Below are positions 866 through 63,588 of a stretch of 64,000 bases of DNA, one piece after another. Where the stretch lies: contig OZ024740.1 in NCBI GenBank assembly GCA_964016885.1, positions 200,136,001 to 200,200,000 of the forward strand, in the 5' to 3' direction. Positions within the stretch are counted from its first letter, which is position 1, and every line of letters begins with the position of its first letter. The position numbers and the translations under genes were made by a program. Below the pieces are notes generated by a model. It searched no databases, was not told the origin of the DNA, and saw nothing but the letters and a program-made list of their open reading frames with translations. Origin of the DNA: Eledone cirrhosa. Lineage: Eukaryota.

Positions 866-908
866 ACGGTGCTGACGATAGCTAATACGCTTGAAACTAG
901 TACATCGT
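866..908 (+). ncRNA. Minimal type I hammerhead ribozyme
   Basis: acggtg-CTGACGA-t-agc taatac gct-t-GAAA-ctag-TA-catcgt. Helix I acggtg/catcgt, 3-bp helix II, palindromic helix III ACTAGT, GUA site. Confidence 0.75.
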
Positions 909-3325
909 TCCTTTGTCAGTGTTGAACAAAAGGGCAACGATGGTTGCTAGACACTGTACGGCTTAATTCGGGATGTTTGTTTAGAAACAAACCGAGCATT
1001 ATAATAAATGCTCGGTAAATCCATACTTACATATATATAGGTGTACATGTATGTATATATATACATACTACTGTACGTCTGTATACATATATGTATGTAC
1101 GTGTACATACTTATATTTTACGTAACAGCCGTACTAAGAGTGAGAAATTAAATTTCGTTTCACTTTTTCCATTTATATACACATATATATATATATATAT
1201 ATATATATATATATATATGTGTGTGTGTGTGTGAGGAGGGGGGAGTGTGCGTTTGTTTGTGTGTGTGTGTATGTGTGTGTGCATGTGTGGGTTTATGTGT
1301 GTGTGTATGTGTAGGTTTATGTCATTATTAATGCATGTAGCTAGTAATAAGATGTTTCTAGTTAAATGACTTGCAAGACCATTGTTCAACTTGGTACTCG
1401 ATGTTTTAACGAACGTGGTGTGTAGAATTACATGTTATGAATTACTTCTGCCTCTCTTCCCCCTCTCTCTCTATCTCTCTCTCTATCTCTCTCTCTCTCT
1501 ATATATATATGCATTCGTCCGCACACACACATACACACACACACATACCTTCCAAAATCGCAAGGACATCTGGAGAGTGTTCTTATCTGTAGTCTCCCTA
1601 CTGTTAAGTGAATTACATAAATTTTCTTCCCTGACGTAGTCTATTCTATCAGAGACAGTTATTCCATTTACAATGTGATTTAGTATATTTATTTTAGTTG
1701 TATCTTCACCCGGCTATTCTCCTTATTAATGTTATGCATCTTATAATTCATCTTCGTCTTATGTTTATGTATATTCATATTACCCTCTTTGATAGCCATT
1801 GAATAAATATTTGTTATGTTCTTGTCACTCTAGACAGTGGGGGTCGTTGTTCTAATTAGTAGATTTGTTTAGTAGCTTAGAGAATTATGGGTATTTATAT
1901 TATTCCTTCTGTATGACTGTCCCATTGAATAGGAATACGATAACCTAAATATAATGTATATATATATATATATGATATATGTGTGTTGGTATATATATAT
2001 ATATATATATATATATATATATATATATATATATATATATATTTATATATTCTGTGGATTATCCTGGTCGAATAGTTAAGTTCTTTTAATCATGTAAATC
2101 CAAGATCGAACCTACTACATATCATCATCCTAAGGAAGATCCAACTCAGTTTTACCATTTCCAAATATCTAACACCCTAGACAAACAACACTTATGAGTG
2201 AATATATGAAAATAAAAATGTCTTGCAACTGGGATGAACTATGGTTACGATTATTGGAAAATGCTTCACAAAAATTTAACACTGAGTATAACATAATTAT
2301 TTTAGACTTTCTTTCCAGGGTGAGACTATAGGGAGAGAGATATTTCTAGCGTATTGCTGATATCCAAGTCGAGCTTGGGCGAGAGATCGGACAGAAAGTG
2401 ACGAAAAAAATATAAGAATAGGATGGCTACAAATAATATGTGTGTGTCCCCCCCCCCCCCCCCCCCCCAGCAAAAAAGATAGGTGACGAAGAAAGAGGGA
2501 AGGAGTTTAAAAAGGAGAAATAAACAAGAGAGCGGGGATGGAGTGATAGGTGAGCCGCACTGAAATGATAAAAAGCTTATGTTTATTGTGGGAGTTCTGC
2601 ACAAGATTACATGTGGGCGCACATGTTCACAGATTAAAATGCTAACACCCAGAGTAAACATATGTAACAGTATTGTAAATGGTTTTATATAGAACTCTGT
2701 TAGGAATAAGTGAAAGTATTTAAAATGTTCATTACGTAGATACTTAGCCAATCTCTCAAACGTTAAGCGCTGAGAATATAAAGTTAATGTAATGTATGAG
2801 CTTATGCGTAGATATGCTATAAAATAGCTCATAAAATAGGCTGGAGACACTTAAAAGACGATAGAAAGTTTGCCATCAATTGCTATGAGGAATTAAACCT
2901 CATATCTTCCAGTTACCGACGTTTAAGGGTCTTCACCCTATCTTGAAGCTATTTTATAGTATTTCATCTCATGGGTACATTATTCTTTATAATAACATAT
3001 TTATTAAGTGCTGTATTATCATGGAAAAGAAAGGAAAACAAAAAAAACAAAACAAAAAAAATCAAGGCTCTTATATATATTGCTACAATAGAGGAAACCT
3101 TATCAAGTAACGCTGTTTAATTGCTTTTATATTTTAACATGTTTGTCTCAAATACATGAATCCTCAAACGTAAAATACTACAAGCATACAACTCTCAAAA
3201 CGTGCACATTATAAAACAAACAACCCCTCAACATCTATCTCTAATGGGCCTCAGAATACACGGGAGATAACTATAAAATATAGTCGAACAATTTTAAAGT
3301 AAAGACGTATATAATAATTATTATA

Positions 3326-3500
3326 ATTTCTAATATTGCCACAAAGCTAACAATTTAAGACAGATACTTTATTTTATCGAGCTCAGAAAGATGAAAGGCA
3401 AAGTTGACCTCGGCAAGATTCGAACGTTAAATGCTGAAAGTCGTAACTTAATTTTTTCCAATGCTCTATCAGTACTAAACACCTACCACCCTTATATTAA
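3326..3500 (-). mobile_element. Degenerate octopus-type SINE
   Basis: gatgaaaggcaaagttgacctcggc core and tttctaatattgccacaaagc tail, shared with the copies at 35028 and 57054. Confidence 0.6.
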
Positions 3501-61949: not shown

Positions 61950-63330
61950 CTTCCTCCATCAGCTCCTTCACAGCCTCGAAGGTATCCTCCAAACTCTTCC
62001 CCTATTTGCATCCGATCCTTCTTCCATTTCTCGAACATTCTCTTCACAAAAACACGCTACGATAGTCACCTCAGTTTTTATGCTGCTGTTTTCACCACCA
62101 CCTTATCATTCCCCGAGGTTTCACCTCAAGACCCACCCCACTCCATACGCCACCCTCTTACTGAGCCAATCCTTACCCACCCCTCTCGCCATAACATATG
62201 GGCGACTCGCCGTTCAACTTTCTAAAGCCTAACTTTATCTCTCCTCCACTTTCCACCGATCCCGCTATCAATTCATCCTTCTCGTCAAACGCCGCCTTTT
62301 CAATGTTCTCACCTGTAGCAAGAAACACAAACTTAAATAACTCAGTTCCCCGCCTGCCGTCACTACACATACTCATATCACCTCTAGTCCTAACCCTATT
62401 ATCTTGTCACCTATGACCTCTTCTCTCATAGAACCCACCCTCTCTCCTCTCCCCACCAATAACTCCCTACACACCTTGTCTAATAACCACAACTGCTACT
62501 TTCGCCCAAGTTCAGGACCTAAGACTCTCCGAAGATGAGAGCATCCGCACTGCCAGGATTTGAGCTTCAAACCTACCACATCCACCTGCAACAATTTCCA
62601 CACACGTGCCGACATTGAAGGGTTGTTCCATCGACTAAAGCTCAAAGTTTTTTCCACGACACCACATGATAGACCCAGACAAAAGACTTCACAAGTCTCA
62701 GTCGGCGGCAATCATACTGGACGCCGAAATTTGGCCAGCTCAGAACCCTCGACTTCTTTGTCGACTCTTGCTGACGCACTGTGAACCGGTTCAATTTCCA
62801 CATGCGTTCCTGTCGCAATAACCTTACTTGCGCTCGTTACAGCCTACGGTGTCGGGATGGCAATGTGATCAAACCCACCGACAAGGGATTCGCCGTGGTG
62901 GACCTCTACATGAATGAGACACTCCGGCAAGTAATTGTCACCCATTTTTACCGCCCTTTATCCTCTGACCCCACCACTGGCTTCGAACAGATTGTTTCCT
63001 CCAACATTAACAAACTCATCTCCTCCTCTCTCCTGTCCCCCACAGCCGCAAACCTTATAGTACGCAACACTCGCACACCCACCATCTATTTCCTCCCCCA
63101 AATATATAAACTTAATAAACATGGCTGTCATATCAATTCCGTCTGTAACTGCCCCACGAACCCATCTCACAATACCTCAATACCCTTCGCGCTCTTTAGT
63201 TGCCGTTCTCAAGATGACGGCGTCCGTGCTCTCCTACATGTTTTTTGACGAACGCCTCACCCCTTACCCACGCTTACGTCTAATTCACCACGTCCTAACC
63301 CACCTACATCTAACTGTATATACGCTACTC
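61950..63330 (+). pseudogene. Degenerate Penelope-like RT of a different clade (Neptune/Poseidon-like)
   Basis: LFHRLKLKVF, VIKPTDKGFAVV, FYRPLSSDPT and IYFLPQIYK..CNCPT match the DKG and PKIHK regions of PLE RTs. Many frameshifts. Confidence 0.8.
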
Positions 63331-63530
63331 CTAATTTTTCCGCACTCGCTGGCTCTGCAGAAGGACCATGATTTCAAGATCCAGTCTCAACTCATGGATT
63401 CTCGCTTCACCCAGCGTATATATATATATATATATATATATATATATATATATATTTATTAAAATAACAGATTAAAGTTTAAGCAAAGAATCGCTAGGCT
63501 GGACTGGTGTAATTCCTGAAAAGGTTTATT

Positions 63531-63588
63531 ATACTATGATCATTTCAATGACCTGGTTTAGTATGAATCCAGTGACATCATCAGATAT
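63531..63588 (-). ncRNA. Type I hammerhead ribozyme
   Basis: Reverse complement: atat-CTGATGA-tgtca ctgg..ccag gtcatt-GAAA-tgatca-TA-gtat. Palindromic helix III ATGATCAT; weak helix I. Confidence 0.65.

Follow-up and report, generated by a model that had tools for sequence, protein, structure and literature searches.

The window analysed here is a 64,000-nt stretch of the Eledone cirrhosa genome (contig OZ024740.1, positions 200,136,001 to 200,200,000, forward strand), and all coordinates below are positions within it unless another contig is named. It contains many type I hammerhead ribozyme motifs embedded in repeats that end in (TA)n tracts. We estimate a probability of about 0.78 that these hammerheads mark the 3′ ends of two kinds of element, Hydra-clade Penelope-like elements (PLEs) and tandem retrozymes lacking an open reading frame (ORF), both ending in (TA)n, with the retrozymes likely copied into the tracts by a Hydra enzyme.

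Results

Hammerhead-bearing repeats in the window

The features are as follows, the Hydra and retrozyme labels being assignments explained below (UTR, untranslated region; pLTR, pseudo-long terminal repeat).

789–1176 (+): family C retrozyme, 428-nt unit without an ORF; hammerhead 866–908, helix III ACTAGT
6520–7870 (−): family B, Hydra PLE 3′ UTR/pLTR; hammerhead 6619–6696 with the family-fixed U4C; end at +110 in (TA)n
8477–8804 (−): family L pLTR fragment; hammerhead-like motif 8586–8636, U4A core
8982–10316 (−): family B, second copy; hammerhead 9005–9084; end at +34 in (TA)n
10655–11348 (−): family A (A1) retrozyme, 523-nt unit without an ORF; hammerheads 10688–10767 and 11211–11290; (TA)n on both flanks
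14234–14520 (−): family A (A2, 70% identity to A1); hammerhead 14429–14508
14866–15120 (−): family J, Hydra PLE 3′ end, the element extending upstream; hammerhead 14997–15061, CAAA replacing GAAA in this copy
18888–19938 (no single strand): family A2 insertion with 5′ inversion; hammerheads 19083–19164 (−) and 19786–19867 (+); (TA)n at both ends
21334–23057 (−): family D, 5′-truncated Hydra PLE; end of the GIY-YIG ORF 22251–23057, 3′ UTR, hammerhead 21375–21445
25013–26097 (no single strand): family E, Hydra PLE 3′ end with inversion; hammerheads 25168–25214 (−) and 26004–26050 (+), U3:A8 core; ends at +159 and +51 in (TA)n
26147–26581 (−): family F, Hydra PLE 3′ end; hammerhead 26199–26243
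27649–28033 (−): family L pLTR fragment; hammerhead-like motif 27761–27811
29776–30308 (−): family F copy; hammerhead 29925–29969
32322–32465 (+): family F copy; hammerhead 32374–32418
38794–40123 (no single strand): family G, truncated Hydra PLE with inversion; endonuclease fragment 39129–39452 (−); hammerheads 38827–38862 (−) and 40054–40091 (+)
40129–43505 (+): family L, full-length, frame-broken Hydra PLE (pLTR-ORF-pLTR); ORF pieces 40393–42480; hammerhead-like motifs 40200–40250 and 43432–43482
43543–45558 (+): family H retrozyme array, 3.4 units of 595 nt without an ORF; hammerheads at 43614, 44209, 44798 and 45393; (TA)n on both flanks
47605–48297 (−): family K retrozyme, circularly permuted unit of ~700 nt; hammerhead 47893–47978
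63495–63697 (−): family I; hammerhead 63531–63588
1031–63909 (no strand): 59 (TA)n-rich tracts of at least 20 nt, together 8,689 bp or 13.6% of the window, vs 5.1% in the genome sample

The genome sample comprises 99 10-kb stretches from 22 large contigs of the 3.0-Gb genome, evenly spaced rather than random and leaving the other contigs out. Published work is cited from those parts of each source that were available.

An earlier note, made from the letters of the window alone, had listed 21 type I hammerheads in about nine families, most with a palindromic helix III and nearly all on carriers adjoining (TA)n, and had proposed a comparison with dinucleotide-shuffled DNA. Each of these points holds. 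Our descriptor scan, limited to type I topology and allowing a long helix II, recovered all 21 sites, and all fit the core CUGANGA...GAAA...UH with three helices and an open helix I. The core is perfect (C3:G8 or the published U3:A8 covariant) in 16 of them; the other five have a single change, namely U4C (6619 and 9005), A6G (26004), U4A (38827) or G5U (45393). At a score of at least 14, the window has 19 motifs vs a mean of 0.36 (maximum 3) in 50 local dinucleotide shuffles, and 15 with a perfect core vs 0.06. Helix III is a strict palindrome in 14 motifs, self-complementary with a G-U pair or an odd base in five, and non-palindromic in two. We therefore regard all 21 as real type I motifs on the strength of their sequence, with self-cleavage predicted. 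An Rfam scan of the window gave no hammerhead among the 150 of 266 matches at E ≤ 1 that were listed, where TA-driven miRNA matches dominate.

The 21 motifs correspond to 14 insertions in nine families: five Hydra-clade PLE families, three families of ORF-less tandem retrozymes (units of 428–595 nt), and family I, unassigned to either class. Thirteen of the 14 insertions run straight into (TA)n, while the one at 63531 abuts a fragment of another family first. Motifs beyond the earlier list were found at 14997–15061 (−), at 47893–47978 (−) and, for family L, at 8586, 27761, 40200 and 43432; these additional families J, K and L raise the total to at least 27.

Hydra-clade carriers

Seven families, namely B, D, E, F, G, J and L, either contain or lie next to an ORF with a reverse transcriptase (RT) and, at its C terminus, a GIY-YIG endonuclease. 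In every hammerhead-linked ORF that was read the RT comes first and the GIY-YIG domain last; the complete order is seen in E, F and L, and B, D, G and J have linked ORF pieces only. Motifs RIRWR and DKT are present in E and F, RLRWM is found in L, where the DKT position is broken, and YRDD is among the motifs of the hammerhead-linked PLE proteins. The CxCX5C linker is accompanied by CxxC and CxH in D, E and F, by CxxC in L, and stands alone in G. Because of this domain order and the RW, DKT, CxCX5C, CxxC and CxH motifs, we assign the hammerhead-linked ORF families to the Hydra clade. Pfam matched the GIY-YIG domain weakly (E 0.0045) and did not match the RT, and we regard a D5_N match as spurious. 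The closest named relatives of the PLE protein belong to two molluscs, Solemya velum and Argonauta hians (42–46% identity).

Full-length units between hammerheads, with long ORFs, measure 4.9 kb in F and 5.35–5.39 kb in E. In B and J, the ORF starts ~190–240 nt downstream of the hammerhead, or the end of the endonuclease lies upstream of it; D and G were characterised from the window copies plus chance matches. The Hydra families have the canonical hammerhead in a pLTR and the (TA)n insertion, with variant cores in B and L. U4C is fixed in B (19 of 19 pattern-matched copies), a change reported to reduce hammerhead activity in vitro (PMC3088659). All 32 pattern-matched copies of L have a U4A core (CAGAAGA), with a long, non-palindromic helix III. 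ORFs of the Hydra type match 3.3% of the genome sample.

The window also contains two more Hydra-type endonuclease fragments without a detected hammerhead, as well as the start of a decayed PLE RT in which the DKG motif known from canonical PLEs is present (5874–6518 (−), 36882–37406 (+) and 62775–63248 (+)).

ORF-less tandem retrozymes

Families A, C and H consist of tandem units of 523, 428 and 595 nt, respectively, with one type I hammerhead per unit. The longest ATG ORF in these three families, the ones scanned, is 27–57 aa, and the predicted folds of their circular monomers are more stable than those of shuffled sequences (z of −7.4, −4.0 and −7.5). For family K, a unit of ~700 nt was deduced from circular permutation only, and no linked Hydra ORF was seen. 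By their sequence organisation A, C, H and K fit non-LTR (long terminal repeat) retrozymes (PMC7229834). Family H is young: at least 40 of its copies are 100% identical across a 231-nt stretch.

Some variants are private to a single H insertion and common to its units (15 of 15 in one case, seven in another). In one array (C4, about 81,322,000–81,326,000), two unit types alternate and one variant recurs every four units, pointing to a dimer or tetramer template or to stepwise local duplication. We considered whether (TA)n is carried as cargo within the family A unit and ruled this out, the 523 nt between its two hammerheads being unique sequence. For family I, the region upstream extends over at least 1.25 kb in other copies and no ORF was found there.

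Which families have an ORF-bearing parent, a question raised by the earlier note, is thus answered for B, D, E, F, G, J and L, which are linked to an ORF; no specific Hydra parent was identified for A, C, H and K, since the retrozymes lack sequence homology to the Hydra elements in hand. That note's several non-autonomous passengers do exist as the ORF-less families, although most families in the window are instead the ends of autonomous elements.

Two further observations concern these units. Close to the hammerhead, A1, A2 and K have in common, as judged by eye, a block with CACGTG (TCACGTGATTGATTCTT-like; for example at ~10960–10990 and 48040–48070), possibly an internal promoter. The H unit is also present in sequencing runs labelled as four different organisms (53–78% of sampled words), where relatives, diet or contamination are possible sources. 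Contigs of four runs of unknown kind were compared with an H locus; a self-overlapping 620-nt contig in two of them was discounted as evidence of expression, as a tandem DNA array at trace level would give the same result.

Genome-wide abundance and association with (TA)n

In the genome sample we identified 115 strict motifs, compared with 1–7 (about three on average) in each of ten shuffles. The density of 1.16 per 10 kb (bootstrap 0.77–1.65), extrapolated from the sample, suggests a total of ~3.4 × 10^5 motifs, with a range of about 2–5 × 10^5. Clustering 96 sampled ends at 80% identity gave 40 clusters, and at least 40 hammerhead families exist, of which a minority was reconstructed. One family, with helix III ACGCGT, contributes 22 of the 115 motifs, mostly in one stretch (sample loci L021–L119), probably a single array. 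With 15 strict motifs, the window lies at about twice the sample mean, and its TA content is 2.6 times the mean; the densest sampled stretch has 17 motifs. The hammerhead community is therefore genome-wide and the window is not special.

Element ends are enriched at (TA)n. A tract lies within 200 nt downstream of 68 of 85 terminal motifs in the sample, vs 21.5 (maximum 34 in 300 draws) for random positions in the same stretches and 16 on the upstream side. A tRNA-like short interspersed element (SINE) used as control has (TA)n near only eight of 97 3′ ends. This SINE has an ATT-rich tail and 134 matches in 990 kb (in the window at 35022–35225, 49970–50097, 57045–57436 and 28060–28143). Family H meets TA at all 24 of its 3′ ends and at 18 of 20 readable 5′ ends, and since both ends lie in TA, the tract is the target and not a tail.

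A shared insertion signature

The 3′ ends cluster at a few sites per family, 35–300 nt downstream of the cleavage site, mostly reading TAT/ATAT or longer. In this analysis, made without family J, the mapped sites are +77 and +238–247 in H, +57 and +175 in A, +209 in C, +48 and +146 in F, +112 in B and +159 in E. A TA-like overlap of at least 3 nt is found at 96 of 127 called ends and at 14 of 33 distinct sites, vs 11.4% expected (P = 6e-6). Inverted 5′ copies begin at family-specific, mostly TA-like sites in both retrozymes and Hydra families, an observation free of the query bias described below. Such copies were seen in A (7 of 16 loci), H (8 of 24), C (6 of 26) and K (1 of 25) among ORF-less families, and in E (3 of 28), B (2 of 25), J (14 of 23) and F (0 of 30) among Hydra families. 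The common (TA)n-directed route for PLEs and ORF-less passengers that the earlier note envisaged thus finds support in shared junctions and inversions, and the single signature supports trans-mobilisation of the retrozymes by Hydra enzymes.

A mechanism can be proposed as follows. Going by PMC8557442 and PMC11167929, the endonuclease would cut long (TA)n on both strands. The junctions suggest that a free TA end may pair with a short UAU/AUAU stretch 35–300 nt past the ribozyme and prime reverse transcription there. Copying would then pass back through the cleavage site, which the inserted copies span, and would stop at random 5′ ends. Second-strand priming would account for the inverted copies, which begin at sites of this type in the insertions. 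A palindromic helix III may limit cleavage to dimers, freeing monomers able to circularise, and the insertions would split pre-existing (TA)n tracts. Since the copies extend through the cleavage site, the template would be an uncut multimer or a circle; either is compatible with the data. We hold it slightly better than an even bet that the full account applies, with ~3 × 10^5 intact-core hammerheads in dozens of families and ORF-less retrozymes as active passengers that Hydra enzymes move; these enzymes would select where to start by pairing the cleaved end of (TA)n with a UAU/AUAU patch of a circular or multimeric RNA, and would do so on both strands.

Several observations weigh against mobilisation of the retrozymes by Hydra enzymes from paired start sites. 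Comparison of the retrozymes with the seven Hydra families gave low-complexity matches only (best E 2e-4). No intact Hydra ORF was present among six long copies read, all of which are broken. The overlap is 0–1 nt at 17 of 33 end sites, including a common H site. End calling covered 127 of 149 loci and missed 22, and the queries contained 3′ sequence, which biases the dominant sites toward window-like ends. The nested unit patterns of H make a single monomer circle insufficient as an explanation. In vitro, the one PLE tested, the Poseidon element PAc, starts reverse transcription at a site non-homologous to its target (PMC11167929), and eight of nine Xenopus retrozymes failed to cleave (bioRxiv 10.64898/2026.07.22.740005).

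Alternative explanations

The earlier note proposed that the elements may drive microsatellite expansion, which would require that they create or lengthen (TA)n, either through a long target duplication or through telomerase-like slippage during priming. In young H insertions, the pure TA on the two sides adds up to a median of 62 nt, vs 24 nt for genomic tracts weighted by length (p = 1e-6; 20 insertions), and hammerhead count correlates with TA content per 10 kb (rho 0.44), as expansion would have it. However, a preference for long tracts yields the same H flank sums, their mean being 54 under L^2 weighting and 59 when a 30-nt threshold is set. Tracts abutting an element 3′ end and other tracts are equally long (both with a median of 47 nt; p = 0.99), and just 147 of the 652 adjoin a detected 3′ end. 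The 3′ and 5′ TA flanks of H do not differ (p = 0.14), and no duplicated non-TA target sequence was seen by eye at H junctions. We compared the flank pairs of 106 insertions with all loci and found no true empty paralogue; nor was an empty allele found for one insertion on an unplaced contig. Expansion driven by the elements is unsupported by the tract lengths, and we consider it unlikely, with a small but real chance.

A second possibility is that the retrozymes are moved by a young long interspersed element (LINE) or another non-PLE inserter into (TA)n, their likeness to Hydra elements reflecting a shared target. The window has a 5′-truncated LINE (Pfam RVT_1) at 11922–13675 (+) between two (TA)n tracts, which from its tail we take to be of CR1/L2 type. 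Its copies are 99.3–99.9% identical and three of three independent 3′ ends lie in (TA)n, which counts against a Hydra enzyme, as does the lack of homology tying the retrozymes to Hydra elements. In contrast, the retrozymes end at several internal sites with inversions from those sites, as Hydra copies do, whereas the three LINE copies seen have one fixed 3′ end; moreover, these copies were found beside hammerhead elements, in a sample biased to TA-rich places. We judge this source improbable. A further ORF start at 39–750 (−), in the orientation opposite to that of the 866 hammerhead, has no Pfam match; it resembles the N-terminus of R4/Dong-type LINEs.

It is very improbable that insertion occurs anywhere and that (TA)n is later born or retained at AT-rich element ends: the end sites are TA-like seeds and family C has internal TA runs, but 100% identical copies already have long TA on both sides, including at random 5′ truncation points, and the SINE control lacks the pattern.

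The carriers can scarcely be Naiad elements and their derivatives, as the earlier note had them: Naiads do favour (TA)n, and the supplement of PMC8557442 lists them for Octopus and Euprymna, but the RT-then-endonuclease order and Hydra motifs of all hammerhead-linked ORFs contradict this for the ORF-linked families, and in the available parts of PMC8557442 Naiads have an N-terminal endonuclease and a DKA motif, lack canonical hammerheads and occur in cephalopods as remnants, although we made no genome search for them.

Discussion

Earlier publications cover Hydra PLEs and their targeting of (TA)n, the palindromic helix III, and retrozymes. The Hydra clade was described with canonical hammerheads, (TA)n insertion and one Octopus family, Hydra-1_Obim (Craig et al. 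2021, PMC8557442). Our carriers share with it the order of RT and GIY-YIG, the RW, DKT, CxCX5C, CxxC and CxH motifs and a type I hammerhead near the 3′ end, as well as (TA)n insertion, tails and 5′ inversions. They differ in that E and F are 4.9–5.4 kb long with 3′ UTRs of 2.1–2.4 kb (published elements are generally <3 kb), in the many families compared with the one listed for Octopus, and in the fixed U4C (B) and U4A (L) cores. The minimal PLE hammerheads (Cervera and de la Pena 2014, PMC4209133) likewise have palindromic helix III, predicted dimeric cleavage, the U3:A8 core and inverted pairs 100–700 bp apart; helix II is often long here, up to ~60 nt.

Metazoan retrozymes (Cervera and de la Pena 2020, PMC7229834; Li et al. 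bioRxiv 10.64898/2026.07.22.740005) are likewise built of tandem units, each lacking an ORF and containing a single type I hammerhead, with a stable predicted circular fold, and they too co-occur with PLEs, by which they are proposed to be mobilised. The units here are 428–700 nt, and strict (TA)n targeting with fixed internal end sites was not found described in the available text of those papers. In Xenopus, 24 of 57 retrozyme families match transposable elements (Li et al.), whereas we found no pLTR homology to the seven Hydra families compared. PAc of Anolis (Frangieh et al. 2024, PMC11167929) resembles the proposed mechanism in that both target strands are cut and extended at an AT-rich target, and in an internal reverse-transcription start downstream of the hammerhead on uncut RNA, features that we read here from junctions. 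PAc starts in an AC-rich stem-loop, unlike most ends here, which lie at TA-like overlaps of 3–7 nt.

The published hammerhead totals that we found are lower (PMC7229834, PMC4209133), reaching 120,000 (axolotl), >6,000 (Acropora) and ~5,000 (Mytilus), vs ~113 per Mb here, with descriptors that differ. Our literature search, with subscription journals largely outside its reach, found no paper with this scale, (TA)n targeting of retrozymes or shared pairing-like start sites.

Which enzyme mobilises animal retrozymes has so far been argued from co-occurrence and pLTR similarity. The mapped start sites shared by the very young retrozyme H and Hydra elements make the question testable in an existing in vitro assay. 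If the reading is correct, the junctions would be the first direct footprint of an animal retrozyme mover, with a pairing-guided start unlike that of PAc, and the hammerhead count would be above any found in print. For annotation, these repeats need PLE or retrozyme labels. The genome is a large natural library of hammerhead variants, among them the U4C and U4A cores fixed in families B and L. At a density of one hammerhead per 10 kb, transcripts might, as a conjecture, be cut at sense intronic copies.

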